DNA from: an uncultured Candidatus Saccharibacteria bacterium
GTDB taxonomy: Bacteria; Patescibacteriota; Minisyncoccia; Phycocordibacterales; UBA1550
Direction: 5' to 3'
Length of the DNA stretch: 64,000 bases
Assembly (NCBI GenBank): GCA_964642305.1
Contig: CAZXOE010000001.1
Location: 58,917-122,916 of the forward strand
Position 1 is the stretch's first letter; the number at the start of each line of letters is the position of its first letter. Position numbers and translations under genes: made by a program. The notes under the pieces are model-generated. The model saw only the letters and a program-made list of their open reading frames with translations, did no database searches and was not told the DNA's origin. Below are positions 7,702 to 49,858 of the stretch, one piece after another.

Positions 7702-7757
7702 TTGCGACAAAGTCGCACATGTGACAATTAACAATTGACATTTGACTTGAATACAAA

Positions 7758-7790
7758 AGAGAGGGTTTGCGCGAAGCGCAAACCCTCTCT
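7758..7790. terminator. bidirectional hairpin (AGAGAGGGTTTGCGC gaa GCGCAAACCCTCTCT) between convergent cohesin and SET genes
   Basis: Perfect 15-bp inverted repeat followed by TTTGTCAGTTGTTAGTTGTTTTTCC on +. An A-rich tract precedes it on +, which reads as T-rich for the minus-strand gene. Confidence 0.55.
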
Positions 7791-7793
7791 TTG

Positions 7794-8210
7794 TCAGTTG
7801 TTAGTTGTTTTTCCACACGGCTCGCACCTGCATCCATACGGCTTGATATACTCATCAAAGTACTCCTCGCCATAGTCATAGTTGAGCTCCTCCCCTGCTT
7901 CTATTCGTTTTATTGATTTTATAAACACACGCCCTCCTATAATATCCACCTCGCAGTTTGGCTTGCAGGAGTGGTTTATATACCTCGCAGTGTTTGAGCG
8001 CGCGCTGCCGTCAATCATTCTTACAGCGCTTGTTTCAAACAAATACTTATTCTCCGGGTACTCTTCAACCTCTTTTCTCCCGTTTATAAGCTTGCCAACG
8101 TATTCAATAATCCAAGTTCCTCGTTTAATAGGTTCCTCGGCAAAGAGCCCAAGCCCAGCTTTTGACTTCTTTACTTTGTATTTAACATTCCCTATTTTTG
8201 GAATTGGCAT
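7794..8210 (-). CDS. SET-domain protein (putative protein-lysine methyltransferase) with post-SET Cys cluster
   Basis: GLGLFA (GxG), RYINHSCKPNCEV (NHSCxPN), EELNYDYG (ELxxDY), and CRCEPCGK post-SET. 138 aa. Confidence 0.85.
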   Translation of the reverse strand: MPIPKIGNVKYKVKKSKAGLGLFAEEPIKRGTWIIEYVGKLINGRKEVEEYPENKYLFETSAVRMIDGSARSNTARYINHSCKPNCEVDIIGGRVFIKSIKRIEAGEELNYDYGEEYFDEYIKPYGCRCEPCGKTTNN

Positions 8211-19616: not shown

Positions 19617-19675
19617 TATAAATCTCACCCAATAATAAGGTAGCGACCGCTACCTTATTATTGGGTGAGATTTAT
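19617..19675. repeat. family-1 long palindrome, copy a (ATAAATCTCACCCAATAATAAGGTAGCG acc CGCTACCTTATTATTGGGTGAGATTTAT)
   Basis: Perfect 28-bp arms. Second copy at 20319..20367. The two copies bracket the PaaX-like gene at 19720..20304. Confidence 0.8.
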
Positions 19676-19719
19676 AACTATGAAGTTTAAATAGGTAATA
19701 AGTATGATTGTGGGTTTTA

Positions 19720-20304
19720 CTACTTAAGCTCAAAATATTTCCTTACCCATTTGTCATTTTCTATAGAATCCGCGATTATGTACAAAATCTCCTTCCCTAT
19801 TTTATAGTCTGCCTTAATAAGCGTTATAATCTCCTCACAGTTATATGGGAATACCCACACGCTGTTTTGTAACTTAAGGAAGCCTATTTGCTGAAGTTTT
19901 TTTCTAAATTTCTCGCGAGTTCCTTTCCTTTTTTCGCGAATATCAAATATTATTATTCGCCATTTTCCATCCCACTTCCTAGGTTTAATAGACTTAAATT
20001 CATTTCGCTCAATAAGCCTGAGTGTTCGCTCGCCACCCTCGGTTAATCTCAAAAAAACACCTTTTTCTGTTTCCTTCCACGCAACCAGTCCTTTGTCGCG
20101 TAATCTCTTGATTGCATTATTTACTGCGTATCTTCTATTTTCACTATCTTTTTTATTTGGATCAATATGCCTCAATACAGAGAGAACGTTAGGCATTGCC
20201 AATGCGATGCTGATCACTCCTACAGTATACAGAGAAGTCAATACAGCCCTCTGAATTTTTGAGTTACGCATCCTCTTTTTCAGTTTTTCCTCAGCTGTAT
20301 GCAT
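19720..20304 (-). CDS. PaaX-family-like transcriptional regulator paralog (wHTH + Cas2-like C-terminal region)
   Basis: N-terminal hydrophobic stretch (VLTSLYTVGVISIALAM) then wHTH-like segment (AIKRLRDKGLVAWKETEKGVFLRLTEGGERTL). C-terminal WDGKWRIIIFDI...LQNSVWVFP resembles the PaaX C-terminus and the Cas2 core. Paralog at 35152..35703. Confidence 0.55.
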   Translation of the reverse strand: MHTAEEKLKKRMRNSKIQRAVLTSLYTVGVISIALAMPNVLSVLRHIDPNKKDSENRRYAVNNAIKRLRDKGLVAWKETEKGVFLRLTEGGERTLRLIERNEFKSIKPRKWDGKWRIIIFDIREKRKGTREKFRKKLQQIGFLKLQNSVWVFPYNCEEIITLIKADYKIGKEILYIIADSIENDKWVRKYFELK

Positions 20305-20318
20305 TCATAAATTCTATC

Positions 20319-20367
20319 ACACCTCCCAATAATAAGGTAGCGGTCGCTACCTTATTATTGGAGGGTG
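20319..20367. repeat. family-1 long palindrome, copy b (CACCTCCCAATAATAAGGTAGCG gtc GCTACCTTATTATTGGAGGGTG)
   Basis: Shares the core CCAATAATAAGGTAGCG..CGCTACCTTATTATTGG with copy a. Sits immediately upstream of the PaaX-like gene start. Confidence 0.8.
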
Positions 20368-20428
20368 AGTAAGTTGATAATTAAATACTTATTATAAATA
20401 ATAATAAATAATATTTTTCTAACCTAAA

Positions 20429-20974
20429 TTAGTTGGTGACTTCGCTCCACGCGGAACCGGTGATTTCACCGTCAGAGTTCAATGTAACGACAACCTGCAA
20501 TGTTCGCTTATTGGCATTCATTATTCCTTTTGATGTTATGGTCTTTGAGGTAGCGTCGCCAGTCACCTGCACCTTTGCGCAATCTTTAGACAGGGTGCAT
20601 CCATTCGTACTGAAATCAACTGAATAACAATCGGTAGTCGCGCAAAGATATGTTTTATTGCGAGCGATTTTAATAAGCGCGTCTCGAGCGCCGGACTCTG
20701 CGTAAAAATGCGCACGTGACGACTGCGCGCTTCCCTGTGAAATAAAAAGCTCGGTAAAAGAAAGCGTGGTGATGCTCACGGCAACCACTAGCGCCATCAC
20801 ACCAAGAAGCATGACTGTTGGGAGAGTTGCGACACCGCGGGAGCGCAAAGCACTACAACTGACCACTGACAGCAGACCACTGACAGCAGATTTTCGCTTC
20901 GCGAAAATCTGCTGGTTTGTTTGAGTAGTCGCGTAAGTTGTAAGTTGTAAGTTGTAAGTTGTCATTTGTTTCAT
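20429..20974 (-). CDS. pseudopilin-like protein (prepilin-type N-terminus lacking Glu5)
   Basis: ALRSRG|VATLPTVMLLGVMALVVAVSITT resembles a class-III signal with minor-pilin features. Start is ambiguous: ATG at 20974, or in-frame GTG/TTG giving leaders MVSCSALRSRG / MRSRG. The 5' end carries 4x GTAAGTT heptamers and the palindrome at 20884..20914. Confidence 0.55.
   Translation of the reverse strand: MKQMTTYNLQLTTYATTQTNQQIFAKRKSAVSGLLSVVSCSALRSRGVATLPTVMLLGVMALVVAVSITTLSFTELFISQGSAQSSRAHFYAESGARDALIKIARNKTYLCATTDCYSVDFSTNGCTLSKDCAKVQVTGDATSKTITSKGIMNANKRTLQVVVTLNSDGEITGSAWSEVTN
20884..20914 (-). promoter_or_regulatory. 31-nt hairpin CAGCAGATTTTCGC gaa GCGAAAATCTGCTG flanked by inverted ACAACT(G/T)AC heptamer arms, in the 5' region of the pseudopilin gene
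   Basis: Same palindrome occurs at 43253..43279 upstream of pilM, in the same orientation relative to the gene. Arms: 20851..20883 and 20933..20960 (4 perfect GTAAGTT units). Confidence 0.5.
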
Positions 20975-20976
20975 CT

Positions 20977-21555
20977 CTACCTAAGCGTTACTGTCGTGCG
21001 AAGCGAATCTTCGTATGTCCAATCGCTACTCTCTGCATTGTATCTCATTGTCATCAGTACCTGAACCGCTGTAGTAGTGGCAAGAAGCACTGAGTTGTAG
21101 TTTTCAATACGTGTAAACGTTGGCACATCCACTGTAACATAGCTTCCAGTAACAGCATCCGGCGCGCCGGCATTAACCTTTCGACGCAGAGTCCCGTCCA
21201 ACATATCGTAAAAAATAGTATCCCCTGACACAGTGAGCGACAGCGTGCTACCTGGAGCGCCAAGCGTGGGCGCAGAAATAGCTGTGGCATTCTTTACATC
21301 CTGCTTGATGAGCTCGCCTGCAAAGCGAATCGCGGAGTTTATCTCGCTCCGCGCTTCTGACTGCCCGCGTCCCTTTGAAAGCATTATAAACGCGTCAGAA
21401 ACAATCACCATAAGACCGGACAAGAGAGCAATGTAAATCAGAAGCTCCAGGAGAGAGATACCGCGAGTACGCGAACAACTTACAACTGACAACTTACAAC
21501 TTACAACTGACCCAAAAATACTATTCGATGCTTTTGTTAAATATTTTCTATTCAT
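20977..21555 (-). CDS. prepilin-type N-terminal cleavage/methylation domain protein (pseudopilin)
   Basis: RTRG|ISLLELLIYIALLSGLMVIV is a class-III signal peptide with Glu5. The track start at 21561 is a TTG; the ATG is at 21555 (MNRKYL...). An in-frame TTG gives the shorter leader MSVVSCSRTRG. Five GT(A/C)AGTT heptamers lie within the leader-coding region. Confidence 0.75.
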   Translation of the reverse strand: MNRKYLTKASNSIFGSVVSCKLSVVSCSRTRGISLLELLIYIALLSGLMVIVSDAFIMLSKGRGQSEARSEINSAIRFAGELIKQDVKNATAISAPTLGAPGSTLSLTVSGDTIFYDMLDGTLRRKVNAGAPDAVTGSYVTVDVPTFTRIENYNSVLLATTTAVQVLMTMRYNAESSDWTYEDSLRTTVTLR

Positions 21556-21632
21556 AGTCAATTATCACTCTTGTTCTTATTGTATCTTGTATTCTGTTAG
21601 TTGTCAGTTGTTTGTCGTTAGTTGTTCTCCCA

Positions 21633-22925
21633 CTACGGCGCCCAGTTTACCACCACATCCTCTACTGTTGGCGTATATGTTCCGGCGTCTGTACAGTTAT
21701 TTGAGCAAATGCGAATCTTGTAGCGGAAGTATCGTTTATTGTTCCATGCAGACCGGCATAGCTCAGCGTCTGTAGCTAATAATCCCACAAGCTCAACAGG
21801 GGTGCCAGGAGTAGGCGCATCAAACCAGTCTCCCGACGCGCATGTTGCGCCTCCAATATATGTCCATGGCCCCCCTGCACTATCAGAAGCAGAGAACTGA
21901 AAACCAACCTTCCCCTCATTTGAGCCAGGTCCACCGAGTGTTCCCTTCCACATTACCGAGTTGTACCCTGCCCCATCGGCGCTTCCTGTTGAGTCAAAAA
22001 CTGCTGAAGTAAGTATGCCGAAAGCAGGCATACCTCCACACGCTGGCGGTTTGTACCTGTGCGTCTCAGTCATTTTGATTCCAAGTCCATAGATCGTCAC
22101 ACCTGAAGGGTTGAAGTTGAGAGTGTATGAATATGTTCCAGCAGAGATTGGTGCGATTTTCCCGCTCGTGTCTTTATAGTCCAATTCAAACGGAGTCGGT
22201 GTGGCTCCGACATTGGGTAACGTAAATGTTTTTGATGTCCCTGCATCAGCATCAATCATAAATGTAATACTTCCGGTTCCCGTGTAAACGCCTGACGCAG
22301 TGAAATGAAGTGATTTCACTGGATTTGGAACACCGGTTAGATTGTCACCAATGTAGAGATTGAATAGGTATGACTGGTTTGTAGAGACTATCACGTTAGA
22401 ATTTGCCACAAGAGTTTCGGTGGTTTTTATTTTTTCATTTGATGGAGAGCCGTCTGCGCATGCCGGAGGTACATACCGATGCGACTCTGTCATCCTTACG
22501 CCCAATCCATAAATTGTTACCCCTGAAGGGTTGAAGTTGAGAGTGTATGAATATGTTCCAGCAGAGATTGGTGCGATTTTCCCGCTCGTGTCTTTATAGT
22601 CCAATTCAAACGGAGTCGGTGTGGCTCCGACATTGGGTAACGTAAATGTTTTTGATGTCCCTGCATCAGCATCAATCATAAATGTAATACTTCCGGTTCC
22701 CGTGTAAACGCCTGACGCAGTGAAATGAAGTGATTTCACTGGATTTGGAACACCGGTTAGATTGTCACCAATGTAGAGATTGAATAGGTATGACTGGTTT
22801 GTAGAGACTGCGGTATCGGAGCTACCAATAATACTTTCTGTGGTTTTAACCTGATCAGCGGCAAAAGCCGCGTAGCTAATGAGACCAAAACCAAGTATTG
22901 AAAAAAGTATATGAAAAATCTTCAT
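21633..22925 (-). CDS. secreted protein with two tandem 140-aa repeat domains
   Basis: Signal peptide MKIFHILFSILGFGLISYAAFA. Protein segments ...STNQSYLFNLYIGDNLTGVPNPVKSLHFTASGVYTGTGSITFMIDADAG... occur twice. DNA 22103..22389 is identical to 22523..22809. Confidence 0.7.
   Translation of the reverse strand: MKIFHILFSILGFGLISYAAFAADQVKTTESIIGSSDTAVSTNQSYLFNLYIGDNLTGVPNPVKSLHFTASGVYTGTGSITFMIDADAGTSKTFTLPNVGATPTPFELDYKDTSGKIAPISAGTYSYTLNFNPSGVTIYGLGVRMTESHRYVPPACADGSPSNEKIKTTETLVANSNVIVSTNQSYLFNLYIGDNLTGVPNPVKSLHFTASGVYTGTGSITFMIDADAGTSKTFTLPNVGATPTPFELDYKDTSGKIAPISAGTYSYTLNFNPSGVTIYGLGIKMTETHRYKPPACGGMPAFGILTSAVFDSTGSADGAGYNSVMWKGTLGGPGSNEGKVGFQFSASDSAGGPWTYIGGATCASGDWFDAPTPGTPVELVGLLATDAELCRSAWNNKRYFRYKIRICSNNCTDAGTYTPTVEDVVVNWAP
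22103..22809. repeat. intragenic tandem direct repeat, period 420 bp, 287 bp identical in both copies
   Basis: Lines beginning 22101 and 22521 are identical through ...ggtttgtagagact, and weaker similarity extends ~60 bp further 5'. Confidence 0.85.
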
Positions 22926-35083: not shown

Positions 35084-35123
35084 CACAGCTATCCCCATTT
35101 TCTACCTATAGGTAGAAAATGGG
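35084..35123. repeat. family-2 palindrome copy 1 (CTATCCCCATTTTCTACC tata GGTAGAAAATGGGGATAG)
   Basis: Perfect 18-bp arms. Further copies at 35733..35772 and 38113..38154. Copies 1 and 2 bracket the PaaX-like paralog. Confidence 0.8.
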
Positions 35124-35151
35124 GATAGTGAACGGCATACTATACGCTCAA

Positions 35152-35703
35152 TTACGAGAGTCCGAAGTACTCCTTAAGCTTGCCCACACCTTCGATCTCT
35201 TTTGCCTTAATATAAATGATGTGGTCTCTTACTCCGAAAAATTCTCCGACGAAATCAATTTCGTTCTTACAAAGATATGGCGACACAAAAACAGATTTCT
35301 GAATCGGATATAGTCCAAGGTCTTTTATCTTTCGACTTACTGCGCTCCGTGCTAGTTTTTTCGACTCTGGAATATCAAACATCACAATGCGCCAAAAGCC
35401 ATCCCATTTTTTTGGCGTCTTAAGCTTCATATCATCAAGGTTGTATTCAAGAACTTTTTTCTTGCCTGCTTTTGTTATTTCCACAACTTCATTACCATTA
35501 TGTGTATAAATATTTATTAACTTCTTTTCATGAAGCCCTTTAATTGCCCTCTTAACGCGATACCTATCCCGCGCGCTTTCTGGTTTAAATAAAGGAACGA
35601 TTTTTGTGAGTCCAGGCATAGCAAGGCACGCAACAAGAAATCCGCCGAGTGCTAGACCTATTAATATCTCTTTGGCAAGCTCTCCATTTTTATAATCCTT
35701 CAT
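35152..35703 (-). CDS. PaaX-family-like transcriptional regulator paralog
   Basis: Same architecture as 19720..20304: hydrophobic N-term (ILIGLALGGFLVACLAM), wHTH-like segment (AIKGLHEKKLINIYTHNGNEVVEITKAGKKKVL), and WDGFWRIVMFDIPE...IQKSVFVSP. Confidence 0.55.
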   Translation of the reverse strand: MKDYKNGELAKEILIGLALGGFLVACLAMPGLTKIVPLFKPESARDRYRVKRAIKGLHEKKLINIYTHNGNEVVEITKAGKKKVLEYNLDDMKLKTPKKWDGFWRIVMFDIPESKKLARSAVSRKIKDLGLYPIQKSVFVSPYLCKNEIDFVGEFFGVRDHIIYIKAKEIEGVGKLKEYFGLS

Positions 35704-35732: not shown

Positions 35733-35772
35733 CTATCCCCAAATTCTACCTATAGGTAGAAAATGGGGATAG
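35733..35772. repeat. family-2 palindrome copy 2 (CTATCCCCAAATTCTACC tata GGTAGAAAATGGGGATAG)
   Basis: Two arm mismatches relative to copy 1. Confidence 0.8.
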
Positions 35773-35816
35773 TATGACACCAGAATATATTACTTTGAAT
35801 TACTAAACTCTGGTTT

Positions 35817-38112: not shown

Positions 38113-38154
38113 ACTATCCCCAAATCCTACCTATAGGTAGGATTTGGGGATAGT
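38113..38154. repeat. family-2 palindrome copy 3 (ACTATCCCCAAATCCTACC tata GGTAGGATTTGGGGATAGT, perfect)
   Basis: Arm differences relative to copies 1 and 2 are compensatory (AAATC/GATTT versus ATTTT/AAAAT). Confidence 0.8.
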
Positions 38155-43143: not shown

Positions 43144-43252
43144 GGCGTTTAATAAATGATGTACTGTTAACAACTATTGTAGCATGCAAAGAATTATCTT
43201 GGTATACTATTTGAGTACAAACATGTGACATTTAACCATTGACATGTGACTC

Positions 43253-43279
43253 GCAGATTTTCGCGAAGCGAAAATCTGC
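43253..43279 (+). promoter_or_regulatory. hairpin GCAGATTTTCGC gaa GCGAAAATCTGC with flanking inverted TGACA(A/T)TT repeat arms, upstream of pilM
   Basis: Same palindrome as 20884..20914. Arms at 43220..43250 (ACATGTGACATTTAACCATTGACATGTGAC) and 43280..43311 (TGTCAATTGTCAAATGTTAATTGTCAATTGTC). A related arm sequence also occurs at 7717..7749. Confidence 0.5.
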
Positions 43280-43319
43280 TGTCAATTGTCAAATGTTAAT
43301 TGTCAATTGTCCCAAATCA

Positions 43320-44834
43320 ATGAACCTATTAAGCCTACTTACAAAAGAAAAGCGCGTAGCTGGAATTGAGATCAGCGACTCTGTTGTTCGTGTTGCTTTT
43401 TTAAATACAAATCTTAAGAAGAAAAACCAAGTTACCATAAAACCAAAGGATGATAATATGGGGAATGAAAATACTAGTGTTTCATCAGAAAATAATGAGG
43501 ATTACGAACTTATTCTTATTGAGGAGCCTATTGCATCAAATATAATTGCCGATGGTGTGGTAATTGACATTGATCTTCTTGCAAACACACTAAAGAAAAT
43601 ATGGGAAAAGGCAAACCTTGGCACAGACTATGCTATTGTTGCAATCCCTGACGACAAAATATACTCAAGAATTTTTTCATTTCCAAAGTCAGTCACAGAT
43701 GAGCGCTTAAACGAGGCGATGCGTCTCGCTATCAGTTTTCAAATACCTATAAAAATTGAAGACGCGTATCTAGACTGGGAACGCACAAAGGGAACAAATA
43801 CTACAAATGAGATCTTGCTCTCAACGATTCCACGCAAAGTCGCAGAGGGTTATGTGCAAGCGCTTGAGAGAGCCGGTATTAAAACACTCGCTCTTGAAAG
43901 TCATCTAGCGGGGATCTCTCGTTCCGTAAAGCTTGAAGACGGTGTTACAACTATTTTTCTAAAAAAGACCCCTGACGGAGCGACAATCTTTGCCATCAGA
44001 GAGGGTGTCTTGCATTTTTCACGGACGCTCCCTCTTAGTTTTGTTCCTGAAGCAAATCTTCACAATGAAATTCAAAAAGTTAAAGATGCGATTGCGTCTG
44101 AAACAAAAGGAGAGATTAACGAGATAGAGCTTCTGAATGCAACAGTGTGTGACGAATATGCAAATCGCATGGAAATTTCAGAGCCAAAGTCAAAATGGCT
44201 TATTGCTCTTGGGTCAGCTATGCGCGGGAGAATCCCTGAAGGCAATGATAACCTGATCTCACTTTTGCCAGTTGGAACAGAAGAAGCATATTCGTACCAG
44301 CGCGCGACAACATTTATTGTGCTAATGAGAAACCTTATAATTAGCATTTCTATATTTTTTGTGTCTGTGTACACAATAGCGTATGTATCAATGCTATCAA
44401 TGTTGCAAAAGGGAGCCGAGCAAGTAACAACGCTGTCGGCAGGAGCCGTGCCACCAGAATTGGCTGAGAAAGAAAAACTGATAAAGGATGTGAACGCGAT
44501 TACTGAAACAGGAGCAATATTCCTATCAGAGATGCCGATATGGAGCGCTGTGTTAACAGAACTCGTAGCGAGAACACCAGATGGAATCACAATCTCCGCA
44601 TTTTCAGCGCCCAATTTTACAGATAGGTTCTCTTTGGTCGGTAATGCACGGAGCAGGACAACGCTTAATAATTACAAAAAAACGTTGCAAGAATCAGAGA
44701 TGCTTTCTGACATTGAGCTCCCTTTAACAAATCTTGATAAAGAAGAGAATATACCATTCAGCATATCGTTTCGCTTGAAGGATCCTAGTACGCTATACTA
44801 TACTCAAGCGACTGAGAGAACTACAAATATATGA
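43320..44834 (+). CDS. pilM: type IV pilus assembly protein PilM fused to PilN-like C-terminal domain
   Basis: Actin-like ATPase N-term (VAGIEISDSVVRVAFL...), central TM (IVLMRNLIISISIFFVSVYTIAYV), PilN-like periplasmic tail. The track start at 43239 is a TTG inside the repeat element; the ATG at 43320 is preferred and 43293 is possible. Confidence 0.7.
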   Translation: MNLLSLLTKEKRVAGIEISDSVVRVAFLNTNLKKKNQVTIKPKDDNMGNENTSVSSENNEDYELILIEEPIASNIIADGVVIDIDLLANTLKKIWEKANLGTDYAIVAIPDDKIYSRIFSFPKSVTDERLNEAMRLAISFQIPIKIEDAYLDWERTKGTNTTNEILLSTIPRKVAEGYVQALERAGIKTLALESHLAGISRSVKLEDGVTTIFLKKTPDGATIFAIREGVLHFSRTLPLSFVPEANLHNEIQKVKDAIASETKGEINEIELLNATVCDEYANRMEISEPKSKWLIALGSAMRGRIPEGNDNLISLLPVGTEEAYSYQRATTFIVLMRNLIISISIFFVSVYTIAYVSMLSMLQKGAEQVTTLSAGAVPPELAEKEKLIKDVNAITETGAIFLSEMPIWSAVLTELVARTPDGITISAFSAPNFTDRFSLVGNARSRTTLNNYKKTLQESEMLSDIELPLTNLDKEENIPFSISFRLKDPSTLYYTQATERTTNI

Positions 44835-46895: not shown

Positions 46896-48557
46896 ATGTC
46901 TCATATGAAAAAAAATATTGAAACTGCGGAGACTATTCGCAAGGCCGGTTTTGAAGGCGAGATTATCTCCGATGTAGCGAATCTCATTAAATACGAAAAC
47001 GACACGAGCCTATTTGAGCTTCGTCCGGAACTCGCGGTCAAACCAAAAGACGTTTCTGATATTAAAAAATTAGTTTCCTTTGTTGCTGACAAAAAAGACG
47101 AGGACTCAACACTGTCTCTCACCGCTCGAGCTGCAGGAACAGGGATGGCAGGAGGCGCGCTCAACGACTCTATTATTGTAGATGTTGCAAACTTAAATCA
47201 TATTAAAAGTGCAAGTACTGAAAGAGTCGTTGTTGAGCCTGGTGTTTATTATCGCGATATGGATACTGAAACAAGAAAGCTTGGCGTTATTATGCCGTCA
47301 TTCCCCGCTTCGCGAAATCTGTGCGCAGTGGGTGGAATGGTAGGTACAAATGCGTCAGGCGAAATGACACTCTCTTATGGAAGCACCGAAAACTGGGTAA
47401 GGCGTCTTAAGGTTGTGCTTTCTGACGGTAATGAATACGAACTTGGGCCATTAACAGAGAGCGAGCTTGCTTTAAAGAAAAACATCAAAGGTTTTGAAGG
47501 AGAGATTTATCGTCGTATGCACGAGCTTGTTGAAGAAAATTACGACATAATTAAACGCGCAAAACCAAAGGTTTCAAAAAACTCCACAGGTTACGCTCTT
47601 TGGAATGTGTGGGACAGAAAAACCTTTGATCTTACAAAGCTATTCACTGGATCTGAGGGTACACTTGGGATTTTTACAGAAATTGAATTTGCTTTGATAA
47701 AACCAAAGGAACATCGTAAGCTAGTTGTGATATTTTTGACTGATTTTAACAAACTATCAGAGGTCGTCACGCAGGTGCTTAAACATAAACCAGAAACATT
47801 TGAATCGTACGACGATCACACGTTTCAATTTGCAATTCGTTTTTTCCCAGATATTGTGAAGTCACTAAAAACAGGGATAGTGAAGCTTGGGCTTTCATTT
47901 ATTCCTGAAGCATTTATGGTGCTACGTGGCGGGTTCCCAAAGCTTGTGCTCCTTGCTGAGTTTACAGGTGATACGGAGGAAGAAGCGATGGGAAAAGCAC
48001 AAATCGCGTATGACGACCTTAAACAATTCCGCGCGCAGATTGAGATAATGAAAACAGAAAAGGATGCTGAAAAGTTTTGGACAATACGACACGAAAGTTT
48101 CAATTTGCTTAGAAAGCACGGTGGAAAAGACAAGACTGCTCCTTTTATAGACGACATAATTGTTGCCCCAGAAAAGCTTCCAATGTTTTTACCAAAACTT
48201 GCCGAGGTGATGAAGGAGTACAAGCTTACATACACTATCGCTGGACACATTGGCGATGGTAATCTGCACATTATTCCCCTGATGAACCTAAGGAACGCTC
48301 GTGACCGCGATATTGTGATGGAGCTTTCACAAAAAGTATTTAACCTCGTGTTTGAATTTGGCGGTTCAATGTCAGCAGAGCACAACGATGGACTCGTTCG
48401 CACTGCGTACCTAAAACAGATGTATGGCGAAAAAATCTATCATTTATTTGAGGAAACAAAAAATATTTTTGACCCTAAAAATATTTTTAACCCTGGCAAA
48501 AAAGTTTATGGACACGACCTTGAATACATCAAGGAACATATTGATAAGGTGTACTAG
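46896..48557 (+). CDS. FAD-linked oxidase (GlcD / D-lactate dehydrogenase family; FAD_binding_4 + FAD-oxidase_C)
   Basis: FAD-binding PCMH region (TARAAGTGMAGGALNDSIIVD, GGMVGTNASG), C-terminal oxidase domain. 553 aa. Confidence 0.85.
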   Translation: MSHMKKNIETAETIRKAGFEGEIISDVANLIKYENDTSLFELRPELAVKPKDVSDIKKLVSFVADKKDEDSTLSLTARAAGTGMAGGALNDSIIVDVANLNHIKSASTERVVVEPGVYYRDMDTETRKLGVIMPSFPASRNLCAVGGMVGTNASGEMTLSYGSTENWVRRLKVVLSDGNEYELGPLTESELALKKNIKGFEGEIYRRMHELVEENYDIIKRAKPKVSKNSTGYALWNVWDRKTFDLTKLFTGSEGTLGIFTEIEFALIKPKEHRKLVVIFLTDFNKLSEVVTQVLKHKPETFESYDDHTFQFAIRFFPDIVKSLKTGIVKLGLSFIPEAFMVLRGGFPKLVLLAEFTGDTEEEAMGKAQIAYDDLKQFRAQIEIMKTEKDAEKFWTIRHESFNLLRKHGGKDKTAPFIDDIIVAPEKLPMFLPKLAEVMKEYKLTYTIAGHIGDGNLHIIPLMNLRNARDRDIVMELSQKVFNLVFEFGGSMSAEHNDGLVRTAYLKQMYGEKIYHLFEETKNIFDPKNIFNPGKKVYGHDLEYIKEHIDKVY

Positions 48558-48617
48558 GAAGCAAGTAAAAATGCCCAGCCACACTAGTGTGGCTGGGCAT
48601 TTTTACTTGCTTCCTAG
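48554..48617. terminator. 64-bp perfect palindrome (CTAGGAAGCAAGTAAAAATGCCCAGCCACAC tag GTGTGGCTGGGCATTTTTACTTGCTTCCTAG) between convergent genes
   Basis: Overlaps both stop codons (the oxidase ends at 48557 and nirK ends at 48614). Internal TTTTT/AAAAA runs make it a bidirectional terminator. Confidence 0.6.
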
Positions 48618-49858
48618 TGTCCCATCTTTTCTGTCATTTCTGGCGTAGGAATTACGCCCTCATATATTTCTTTATTCTCTGAGCCAGTAACACTTATGAC
48701 CCCCCATGCTCCGCGATCAAGACGCGCGAGCGCGTGATCAACGAGGATATAGTTGCCTGGAACATCGAATTTCATCTCAACGATTGCGGCACCTCCAGCT
48801 GGAACTATCGTTGTCTGCACATTTTCAAAAATCGCAGAATTAGGACCCATGGCCGCCTCTGGATATACTCTGTCAAAAATTTCACCAATCACATGAAATG
48901 ATGAGATAAGATTAACTCCGCCATTCCCTACATAAATGCGCGCTGTCTCTCCTACTTTTGCCGACATATTCCCAACAGTACCTTTCACACGACCGTTGAA
49001 TACGATGTACTCCGGATGTCCGTCAAGAAGCTTGTGAGCATCCATAATCTGAAGACCCTTTGTACCCATTTTACCACTTGGATAAAATTCTCCCTGCACC
49101 ACGTAGAATTCCTTATCAACCTTTGGAAGACCCTCTTTTGGCTCAACCAATATGAGTCCGTACATACCATGCGCCATGTGGTTCCCCACATTTGCATGCG
49201 CGCAGTGATAAATATAAAGGCCAGGGTTAAGCATCTTAAAGCTCGCCTTTTTTGTCTCGCCAGGAGCAATGTTTGTCACTACAGCTCCACCTCCAGGGCC
49301 AGTTACAGCGTGGAAATCTATATTATGTGGAGCAACACTCGTGAGATCGTTCGTGATAGTTAAATCAATGGTGTCCCCTTCACGTACGCGCACCATAGGG
49401 CCTGGAACTGTTCCGTTAAAAGTCCAGTAATCTATAAAAACACCTGGAGCAATTTCAGAAATAATATCCTTTGTGACTAAGTCAAGTTTTACACGAGCTG
49501 GTTCCGTGCGGTTGATTGGAGGGGGGACATCGTTTGGGTCGCGGGCAATATCAGATGCTCGCTCAATAGTTTTAAATTTCTTAAAAAAATCAGTGATGTT
49601 TGCAAGCGGTAGCGAGGGATTGGCGCCTGGTCCGTACGTCGTTATTCCAAATGGATATTCAAGTTGATTTGGAAACGCGCGGGGAGAAAAAACGAATACC
49701 ACGATACCAAAAAATACAACAGAAAGCCATATTGCAGTCTTGAGTGAATGAATTTTGCGAAGAACAATAAAAATAAAAAGTCCACCAGCAGCGAGCGCTA
49801 TAAAGAAACCAAATGTTTGAAAAATGACAAACTTAGTAAAATAAAAAAATTCAATCAT
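48614..49858 (-). CDS. nirK: copper-containing nitrite reductase NirK (two-domain multicopper oxidase)
   Basis: Type-2 Cu site HNIDFHAVTGPGGG. Type-1 Cu ligands in YIYHCAHANVGNHMAHGMYGLILVEP (Cys-His-Met). N-terminal TM/signal anchor. Confidence 0.85.
   Translation of the reverse strand: MIEFFYFTKFVIFQTFGFFIALAAGGLFIFIVLRKIHSLKTAIWLSVVFFGIVVFVFSPRAFPNQLEYPFGITTYGPGANPSLPLANITDFFKKFKTIERASDIARDPNDVPPPINRTEPARVKLDLVTKDIISEIAPGVFIDYWTFNGTVPGPMVRVREGDTIDLTITNDLTSVAPHNIDFHAVTGPGGGAVVTNIAPGETKKASFKMLNPGLYIYHCAHANVGNHMAHGMYGLILVEPKEGLPKVDKEFYVVQGEFYPSGKMGTKGLQIMDAHKLLDGHPEYIVFNGRVKGTVGNMSAKVGETARIYVGNGGVNLISSFHVIGEIFDRVYPEAAMGPNSAIFENVQTTIVPAGGAAIVEMKFDVPGNYILVDHALARLDRGAWGVISVTGSENKEIYEGVIPTPEMTEKMGH

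Follow-up and report, generated by a model that had tools for sequence, protein, structure and literature searches.

Heptanucleotide repeat arrays in the leader regions of two adjacent type IV pilin-like genes: candidate frame-switching tracts in an uncultured Candidatus Saccharibacteria bacterium

Introduction

Two adjacent pilin-like genes in a 64-kb stretch of contig CAZXOE010000001.1 from an uncultured Candidatus Saccharibacteria bacterium (the whole stretch is hereafter called the window) begin with tandem arrays of a 7-nt unit, and the question raised by this locus is whether such arrays switch the pilins on and off, act through the structure of the messenger RNA, or are the traces of mobile palindromic sequence. 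The organism, a groundwater bacterium of Yonathbacteria-like affinity, belongs to the candidate phyla radiation (CPR)/Patescibacteria. Members of this radiation are believed to rely on type IV pili both to attach to hosts and to take up DNA, and to our knowledge almost nothing is known of surface variation or its regulation in this group.

The reading developed here, to which we give about an even chance of being right, is that the two arrays are simple-sequence contingency tracts in the cleavable leaders of two adjacent minor-pilin genes. Translation would start at the ATGs at 21555 and 20974 and run through the arrays to the prepilin cleavage site (RxRG/, with the slash marking the cut). If slipped-strand mispairing then added or removed one or two of the 7-nt units, the mature pilin would fall out of frame (OFF), whereas changes of three units would merely make the disposable leader longer or shorter. 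Each array would also serve as one arm of a long imperfect hairpin, the partner arm being formed by the initiation region or by sequence immediately before it; the hairpin would probably act to tune translation or the processing of the mRNA, and by analogy with hmw of Haemophilus influenzae it may promote unit gain and loss. The sequences themselves show how the elements are built, that the frame is maintained, that relatives vary in unit steps and include one frame-broken allele, and that a fold is predicted whose central hairpin covaries; the start codons, the reversibility and rate of switching, and the role at the RNA level are what we infer. Phase variation is plausible and partly supported, with one clean natural example in an orthologue, and is unproven for the strain of the window.

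The pilin-like genes and their heptamer arrays

The two genes and the parts of the repeat elements associated with them, element B in gene 1 and element C at gene 2, are as follows; TRF is Tandem Repeats Finder.

20429–20974, minus strand: pilin-like gene 1 (PilX-like), an open reading frame (ORF) with 255 homologues
20933–20966, minus strand: 5′ arm of element B, (AACTTAC)x4 in the sense direction, equal to GTAAGTT x4 on the plus strand; translation TTYNLQLTTY; TRF 100% matches
20885–20913, minus strand: central hairpin of element B, 29 nt, AGCAGATTTTCGC-GAA-GCGAAAATCTGCT; translation QIFAKRKSAV
20850–20884, minus strand: 3′ arm of element B, TGTCAGTGGTCTGC TGTCAGTGGTCAGT TGTAGTG; translation VSGLLSVVSCS; TRF periods 7 and 14
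20977–21555, minus strand: pilin-like gene 2 (PulG/minor-pilin type), an ORF with a weak N_methyl match and homologues
21475–21511, minus strand: 3′ arm of element C, GTCAGTT GTAAGTT GTAAGTT GTCAGTT GTAAGTT in the sense direction, encoding SVVSCKLSVVSC; found by TRF
21512–21593, minus strand: apical segment of element C, 82 nt, A/T-rich, holding the ATG at 21553–21555
21594–21634, minus strand: 5′ arm of element C, ACAACTA ACGACAA ACAACTG ACAACTA ACA, untranslated (inverted repeat I3)

In the window, TRF reported GTAAGTT x4.3 at 20933–20962 (matches 100%), an ACAACTT-type array x4.9 at 21475–21508 (matches 92%), and a third, imperfect array at 21595–21626. The motif GTTGTNAGTTGT, allowing at most one mismatch, was found to occur 13 times in the 64 kb against 1.4 expected, a count that none of 100 shuffles reached, and period-7 autocorrelation over the whole window singled out only three places, namely the two pilin arrays and 43280–43315. 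The heptamer repeats are confirmed as real and far above chance expectation.

Both pilin arrays lie inside ATG-initiated ORFs of the minus strand. The initial annotation of this DNA had placed four perfect GTAAGTT units in the frame of gene 1 and five GT(A/C)AGTT units in the leader of gene 2, and both placements are borne out; so is its description of the imperfect array upstream of gene 2 as an inverted arm, the two arms (21466–21505 and 21595–21634) being 40 nt long, 78% complementary, and 89 nt apart. Its view of the arrays as two isolated tracts did not hold, as they proved to be members of a widespread family of inverted heptamer arrays. The peptide (L)SVVSC(K/S), assigned by that annotation to the repeats of both genes, needs correction for gene 1, in which the four perfect units read TTYNLQLTTY and SVVSC comes from the opposite (3′) arm at about 20850–20884. 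The 29-nt hairpin at 20885–20913 and the inverted arm belonging to the gene 1 array itself had been overlooked.

Each pilin array forms one arm of a composite palindrome consisting of a heptamer array, an apical segment or conserved GCGAAGC-type hairpin, and an inverted array. Four copies of this composite are present in the window: in both pilin-like leaders (elements B and C), in the 5′ untranslated region (UTR) of pilMN, and at one convergent intergenic site. In the sense direction, element B comprises the ATG, (ACAACTT)x4, a spacer, the hairpin GCAGATTTTCGC-GAA-GCGAAAATCTGC, and an inverted G/T-rich arm (TGTCAGTGGTC...), and lies wholly in the ORF. In the case of element C, the 5′ arm starts directly after the stop codon of the gene at 21633–22925.

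With respect to the encoded proteins, the gene 1 leader has 47 residues (MKQMTTYNLQLTTYATTQTNQQIFAKRKSAVSGLLSVVSCSALRSRG), with the G-1 codon at 20834–20836 and the mature part beginning VATLPTVMLLGVMAL; its cleavage site, RSRG/VATLPTVMLLGV, is without E5, the protein has no Pfam match, and relatives of it are named PilX by some sources. The gene 2 leader is MNRKYLTKASNSIFGSVVSCKLSVVSCSRTRG, with the G-1 codon at 21460–21462, and the cleavage site RTRG/ISLLELLIYIALL includes E5; the N_methyl match scores 16.3 bits, below the cut-off of 21.2. Both genes show the features of a class III signal peptide, that is, a G-1 site followed by a hydrophobic N-terminal helix. The pilins close a type IV pilus cluster that includes PilB, PilC, a major pilin, and a 1,572-residue surface protein, and a PilM–PilN fusion is encoded elsewhere in the window.

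Translation of the arrays

Comparison with other genomes drew on about 160 related loci (L numbers below), with in-frame starts tallied over about 118 unique sites, and on 141 homologues of pilin 2 and 255 of pilin 1 (P numbers below) from Yonathbacteria, Nomurabacteria, Paceibacterota, and Parcubacteria. Together with the window, they indicate, from sequence patterns, that the arrays are very probably translated. In the pilin-2 array, units 1 and 4 are the only two whose T(A/C)A triplet falls in frame, and precisely these two carry TCA, not TAA. A Shine–Dalgarno (SD)-like motif is found at 4 of 35 confident starts in this genome, the other starts following A/T-rich stretches; the ATG at 21555 has the same non-SD, A/T-rich context, from which the internal TTG/GTG candidates in the G/T-rich arms differ. 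Among the close orthologues, one has to go 78–153 nt upstream of G-1 to reach the first in-frame ATG, GTG, or TTG (only at −123 in L010 and only at −84 in L013), so that the 3′ arm must be translated there, and where the 3′ arm is composed of A, C, and T alone, a conventional start inside it is impossible.

The N-termini are, furthermore, conserved across lineages as MKQLT..., MN(R/K)K(Y/H)L(T/A)K..., and ME(Y/N)RIQN..., with the repeat part that follows being variable; the second of these is the N-terminus of gene 2, held in common with P0032 and L094. At L180, an ATG-bearing 5′ arm (GAACAATTGACATGAAACAATTAAC...) is in frame with a short leader, and hairpin and 3′ arm are both absent, a layout suggesting that initiation ancestrally took place in the 5′ arm, to which the 3′ arm was added later as a complement. 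In L009, L093, and L180, the homologue of the element C 5′ arm is GAACAACTGACATGAAACAACT, which bears an ATG that has been lost in the window. The length of the open frame was discarded as evidence of coding, being weak where several units are stop-free in all three frames. The stop avoidance, start context, and orthologue starts agree with the earlier placement of the repeats within a translated leader, and the accompanying statement that the leader sequence is unconstrained is half true, given that frame, start context, and arm complementarity are all maintained.

Copy number and reading frame

The initial annotation had also proposed that gain or loss of a unit shifts the frame and switches expression on or off. 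In silico, adding or removing one unit of the pilin-2 array causes a frameshift with a stop within about 10 codons, and in the element B array the frame is lost on adding one unit or removing one or two, and kept on removing three. The frame shift itself thus stands, and one broken allele has been found among relatives, with no variation seen across the three assemblies of the strain of the window.

The broken allele is at L168 (ENA ERZ27254728). Compared with L013/L095 (Parcubacteria GW2011_GWA1_47_8), which represent the same species in an independent assembly, it shows 0 mismatches over 3,489 nt and one 7-nt gap, corresponding to a single CGTTCCG unit (three units versus four). Four units bring the ATG located 84 nt upstream into frame; in the three-unit allele, this ATG is out of frame, a TAA lies 54 nt upstream of G-1, and no ATG, GTG, or TTG follows the TAA. 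L168 is the only one of the approximately 118 unique sites without any in-frame start. ON alleles came from ERZ27254745 and ERZ27254732, whose ENA analysis accessions are close in number to that of the OFF sample, and the neighboring pilin-1 protein of the L013 species is found on 12 contigs. Six further homologues called from M+1 or later (P0064, P0050, P0109, P0284, P0285, and P0300) were considered as OFF alleles and rejected, as each has an intact in-frame upstream ATG and its late start is a gene caller's choice; P0062, from L168, is the sole truly frame-broken allele among such homologues.

Other unit-step differences follow the frame. Ahead of the ATG, the untranslated array consists of 3 units in L084, 4 in L004, and 5 in L005; inside the ORF, L092 and L005 are exactly 21 nt apart—that is, three units, in frame—and what sets L164 apart from its near-identical relatives is confined to the repeats of the pilin-1 leader, a net difference of 18 nt that again keeps the frame. 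Free unit changes where the frame is irrelevant, changes of 3n where it is relevant, and an occasional broken allele are what a contingency tract selected for the ON state would be expected to leave in consensus assemblies.

Hairpin structure and the case for a purely RNA-level role

The two composite palindromes outside the pilin leaders are as follows:

43221–43311, plus strand: element D, a heptamer arm, the 27-nt hairpin core (43252–43280), and a TGTCAAT-type arm
7720–7809, no strand assigned: element A, made up of a TGACAAT-type arm, hairpin AGAGGGTTTGCGCGAAGCGCAAACCCTCT, and a second arm, TTGTCAGTTGTTAGTTGT, with a T-run after it

Element D ends 9 nt upstream of the ATG at 43320 of the pilM–pilN fusion gene (Pfam PilM_2, PilN), and is the only one of the window's elements B, C, and D with an hmw-like 5′ UTR placement. 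Element A is located where two convergent genes meet at their 3′ ends, one for an Ig-like surface protein and the other with a SET domain (Pfam). All four elements are predicted to fold into long stems, at −44 to −56 kcal/mol with z-scores of −3.3 to −8.8 relative to dinucleotide shuffles: −43.9 kcal/mol and z −3.3 for element B (20845–20985, minus strand), −56.1 kcal/mol and z −5.7 for element C (21455–21645, minus strand), −47 kcal/mol and z −8.6 for element D, and −51.8 and −47.2 kcal/mol with z about −8.8 and −8.5 for element A. The pairing of the repeats with an upstream inverted arm, as envisaged in the initial annotation, is therefore real in terms of predicted fold and arm complementarity. 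Rfam 15 gave no match to the whole window at the gathering threshold; at the E-value threshold, the pilin locus gave nothing relevant, with sub-threshold matches solely on a palindrome at 20320–20367.

The stem-loop GCAGATTTTCGCGAAGCGAAAATCTGC of 20885–20913 recurs identically at 43252–43280, with a 27-nt core shared by the two loci 22 kb apart. Across eight copies of the central hairpin from different genomes, its 13 pairs are 98% paired, with compensatory double changes at 5 pairs, and none of 500 shuffles matched this covariation, which can reflect either selection for structure or DNA template switching between the arms.

These folds could be taken to mean that the elements are purely RNA-level cis-regulators, with a long hairpin that sequesters or presents a non-SD initiation region, or acts between cistrons as a site for RNase III processing or RNA stability, period 7 and its effect on the frame being by-products and the copy number effectively fixed. 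We regard this as unlikely, though deserving of serious attention. Beyond the folds and the conserved central stem, it accommodates the non-periodic hairpins at the equivalent position in L098, L102/L019, and L094, the non-coding location of elements D and A, and the layout of L180, where the presence of the 5′ arm only makes the 3′ arm an added complement. Arms of the same locus also pair better than arms of different loci (−31.0 versus −24.4 kcal/mol, with 12 of 32 own-locus pairs in the top 3 ranks), a result that is supportive on average, in a test that is blunt because unit families are common to several loci. However, the perfect 4-copy tracts, the unit-step variants, and the exclusive period of 7 find no account in a structure of fixed copy number, and compensatory changes in a palindrome can also arise by template switching without selection. 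Furthermore, in 21 of 26 loci the more stable fold is that of the antisense strand and not of the mRNA (mean difference 7.6 kcal/mol, maximum about 24), element C of the window excepted, which is odd for a selected mRNA structure. The sense fold is weaker because its A·C mismatches become G·U pairs in the antisense strand; one possible cause is that arms which are translated or lie upstream have been cleared of ATG triplets.

Heptamer arrays in related genomes and the case for mobile cassettes

Orthologous loci in about 30 related genomes have an identical architecture built from other heptamers, including AGAATAT/CATTCAA, CAGAACA/CGTTCCG, AAAAGTT/CTTTCGA, GGAATTT/CCAAATT, GTCACAT, CCAACTT, and CCCATAT. 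Many of these arrays are perfect 4-copy tracts of lineage-specific units, indicating recent slippage or homogenization. The mature parts are highly conserved (G/xSLLELLIY... in pilin 2 and G/VATLPTVM... in pilin 1), and the called leaders range from 5 to 82 residues and resemble translated repeats, with plain leaders of 7–12 residues in L009 pilin 1 (8 residues), L017, L019, and L021. The proteins with which pilin 2 of the window clusters have the AGAATAT/CATTCAA leader.

In most close orthologues, autocorrelation is strongest at period 7. A count over 144 kb of sequence, drawn from 18 related genomes, gave 43 period-7 arrays, against 0–2 for each of periods 5, 6, 8, 9, 10, and 11. Of these arrays, 31 fall in the two pilin leader zones, which make up about 7% of the 144 kb; the other 12 are in regions coding for Sec signal peptides, in one third-pilin leader, and, for the rest, directly upstream of start codons. 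About 1.3 kb upstream of pilin 2 in L006, L008, L010, and L018, arrays encode the hydrophobic Sec core of a secreted protein of 410–430 residues (e.g., MKNNKIVIGVPVLLSILFSIFYFLPSALA/FEATS), and further arrays outside the pilin leaders are those at 568–614 in L017, 7048 in L005, 7152 in L010, and 7043 in L012, with ABC-transporter starts among such sites. The occurrence of arrays at Sec signal peptides, a third pilin, and ABC-transporter starts makes the phenomenon wider than two pilins, and the exclusive period of 7, non-coding sites included, points either to cassettes of common descent or to a mechanism that specifically generates such arrays.

Such a distribution raises the possibility that the elements are selfish or recombining palindromic cassettes, of the kind of MITE/REP or Rickettsia palindromic elements, which spread in 5′ regions and survive where they are harmless, as stop-free, in-frame leaders and signal peptides, with no adaptive switch. 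In the window, the identical 27-nt core at two of the four dispersed copies fits this proposal, as do copies in unrelated intergenic sites. Individual genes gain and lose elements separately: in L009, pilin 2 carries the element and pilin 1 has an 8-residue leader, a combination different from that of the window. In addition, at least nine unrelated leaders, from MRGSSRG to a 57-residue composite, are attached to pilin-1 proteins at least 90% identical, and in-frame palindromic insertions have a precedent in the Rickettsia elements (PMC10969869). Yet a comparison of L180 with L004 and the window revealed neither terminal inverted repeats with a target-site duplication nor a sharp boundary. The arms, moreover, vary in sequence from copy to copy within a genome, yet remain complementary to their own partners, the sites are strongly biased to gene 5′ ends, and period 7 is kept across diverged units, all of which leaves us doubtful of this explanation, more so than of a purely RNA-level role.

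Alternative start codons and DNA inversion

The alternative offered in the initial annotation itself, namely that the repeats are 5′ UTR and that translation starts at an in-frame TTG or GTG near the cleavage site, would make the long leaders artefacts of gene calling. Candidates exist in both genes, at TTG 20848 in pilin 1 (MRSRG/) and TTG 21492 in pilin 2 (MSVVSCSRTRG/); about one third of the pilin-1 homologues, as well as distant homologues of pilin 2, have canonical leaders of 6–12 residues, element B is largely free of stops in every frame, and gene callers disagree on starts. For gene 2, the sole in-frame alternative start is the TTG at codon 22, within the array and not, as the initial annotation had it, downstream. 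We nevertheless judge this alternative quite improbable: stop avoidance is limited to the in-frame units, SD sites are rare and the internal candidates sit in G/T-rich stems unlike the A/T-rich start contexts of this genome, orthologues with G-free (A/C/T-only) 3′ arms have no downstream ATG, GTG, or TTG, and the N-termini are conserved, e.g., MKQLT..., MN(R/K)KYL..., and ME(Y/N)RIQN....

A DNA inversion switch, in which a recombinase would flip the 89-bp ATG-containing segment flanked by the arms of element C, has a fitting geometry, with inverted repeats on both sides of the start codon, and is scarcely credible, given that no inverted-orientation allele was found in any assembly or related locus, no recombinase domain occurs in the neighboring genes examined, elements B and D are true palindromes that inversion would leave unchanged, and the spacer is very short. 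Programmed-frameshift slippery heptamers, DNA-uptake sequences, and promoter −35 arrays (TTGACA at ACAATTG junctions) were also considered and rejected, as the unit sequence is not conserved between lineages.

Points that weigh against frame switching

Several observations count against contingency tracts in the two leaders. In consensus assemblies, from which variation was judged, the pilin-2 protein is found on contigs of three assemblies (one contig in 5 samples) that are 100% identical over 20300–21800, repeats included, and exact look-ups for truncated products of the window's two pilin genes returned none. The tracts are short, at 3–5 units, so that switching rates are possibly low. TTG/GTG codons within the arrays (codon 22 in pilin 2, and codons 37 and 43 in pilin 1) could allow leaky initiation in the OFF state. 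The L168 allele, a single clean OFF allele, could represent one-way pseudogenization. Relative to L013, L132/L174 (Ga0209210_1015268), of the same species, carries a 10-nt deletion, GACGGTGTCG, about 227 nt into the mature pilin 2, an independent second frameshift unrelated to the repeats; loss of pilin 2 may be tolerated or selected, or the deletion may be an assembly error.

The attachment of unrelated leaders to near-identical pilins indicates fast cassette replacement or recombination, not slippage alone. Frame switching leaves the arrays in non-coding 5′ UTRs and intergenic sites unexplained, as well as the exclusive period of 7, and the better folding of the antisense strand is a further point on this side.

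Neighboring genes and other palindromes

The ATG of gene 1 lies 2 nt past the TAG stop codon of gene 2 (20974–20979, TAGAGATG). In a genome without SD sites, this 2-nt spacing suggests translational coupling of pilin 1 to pilin 2, and a frameshift in the pilin-2 leader could then lower pilin-1 translation too. Downstream of gene 1 is the palindrome that gave the sub-threshold Rfam matches:

20320–20367, minus strand: palindrome 3′ of gene 1 (inverted repeat I8), 23-nt arms, 91% complementary, outside the heptamer family

This palindrome is the probable terminator of the pilin operon. Upstream of the pilins, the gene at 21633–22925 (minus strand) encodes a secreted protein of 430 residues with a near-perfect internal duplication of about 140 residues (NQSYLFNLYIGDNLTG...GVTIYGLG twice); TRF found a 13-nt repeat at 22893–22918 in its signal-peptide region, and an exact look-up of the protein gave no record.

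Elsewhere in the window, a PaaX_M/Cas2-like gene (19720–20304) is flanked by two near-identical perfect palindromes at 19617–19676 and 20320–20367 with the common core CCCAATAATAAGGTAGCG/CGCTACCTTATTATTGGG, and a second PaaX_M-like gene (35152–35703) is flanked by another palindrome family (35089–35128 and 35753–35802; CTATCCCCAwwwyCTACCTA/TAGGTAG...) that is seen again at 38113–38154. The palindromes flanking the PaaX_M genes could be operators, terminators, or cassette boundaries. A loopless perfect palindrome with 33-nt arms is located at 48553–48618 between convergent genes, and the intergenic regions of this genome seem typically to be punctuated by hairpins that are long and perfect.

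Relation to known systems and significance

In Neisseria opa genes, CTCTT coding repeats are located in the signal-peptide region. The oipA gene of H. pylori is described as having CT repeats in the 5′ coding region (PMC10564699). As in opa and oipA, the unit in the pilin leaders is not a multiple of three and lies in the part of the ORF for the cleaved N-terminal peptide of a surface protein, so that the copy number would set the frame, ON or OFF. Unlike in those genes, the unit here is a lineage-specific heptamer in 3–5 copies, the leader is a prepilin (class III) leader, the array is paired with an inverted array, and the organism is an uncultured CPR bacterium.

The nearest published counterpart is found in the 5′ UTRs of the H. 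influenzae adhesin genes hmw1A and hmw2A, where (ATCTTTC)n makes up the left arm of an imperfect, long hairpin cleaved by RNase III; transcription, folding, and RNase III are required for change in repeat number, and the hairpin is also required for expression (PMC12721329). Heptanucleotide repeats as an arm of a long imperfect hairpin at or upstream of the gene start are common to both systems, with the folds being predicted ones in the present case. However, the hmw repeats are untranslated, number at least 11, face a non-repetitive G-rich partner arm, and give graded expression, whereas here both arms are heptamer arrays of 3–5 units, the 3′ arm is coding in elements B and C, and the predicted effect is an ON/OFF frameshift.

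In pil1 of S. gallolyticus, GCAGA repeats occur in a separate leader-peptide ORF coupled to a stem-loop terminator (PMC3894217). Here too, repeat number in a leader ORF is combined with a nearby RNA stem-loop, which in pil1 controls pilus expression; the differences are that the pil1 leader is a separate ORF acting by transcription attenuation on a sortase-type pilus, whereas the present leader is fused to a type IV pilin and no T-run follows element B or C. Rickettsia palindromic elements are translated, in-frame palindromic repeats of about 100–150 bp within protein-coding genes (PMC10969869). Their family sequences are conserved and their host genes are unrelated metabolic ones, unlike the heptamer elements, in which only period 7 and arm complementarity are conserved, the sites are at 5′ ends and cleaved leaders, and insertion signatures were not found.

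The best-supported reading of the heptamer elements is that they join a repeat hairpin to an opa-type frame switch located in the disposable leader. In the literature searched, no earlier report of simple sequence repeat contingency loci in CPR/Patescibacteria was found, and no direct precedent for repeats in prepilin leaders. More speculatively, and with low confidence, the elements might represent an undescribed class, in Paceibacteria/Yonathbacteria-like CPR bacteria, of self-complementary 7-nt arrays, often built around a GCGAAGC-type hairpin, with a specific turnover (e.g., template switching, or repeat change dependent on the hairpin or on RNA), which colonize the start regions, cleaved leaders, and signal peptides of many surface-protein genes as structure-plus-frame switches and diversify the surface of an episymbiont.

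The leader arrays explain the erratic start calls and the highly variable leaders in database entries for these pilins. A frame-shifting repeat that forms one hairpin with its own inverted copy would, in addition, link the opa-type switch with the repeat hairpin of hmw, and if frame switching is true, copy number modulo 3 would be a sequence-readable marker of population heterogeneity in metagenomes. Overall, if the leader tracts do switch the minor pilins and neighboring secreted proteins, contingency-locus behavior would extend to the CPR radiation.

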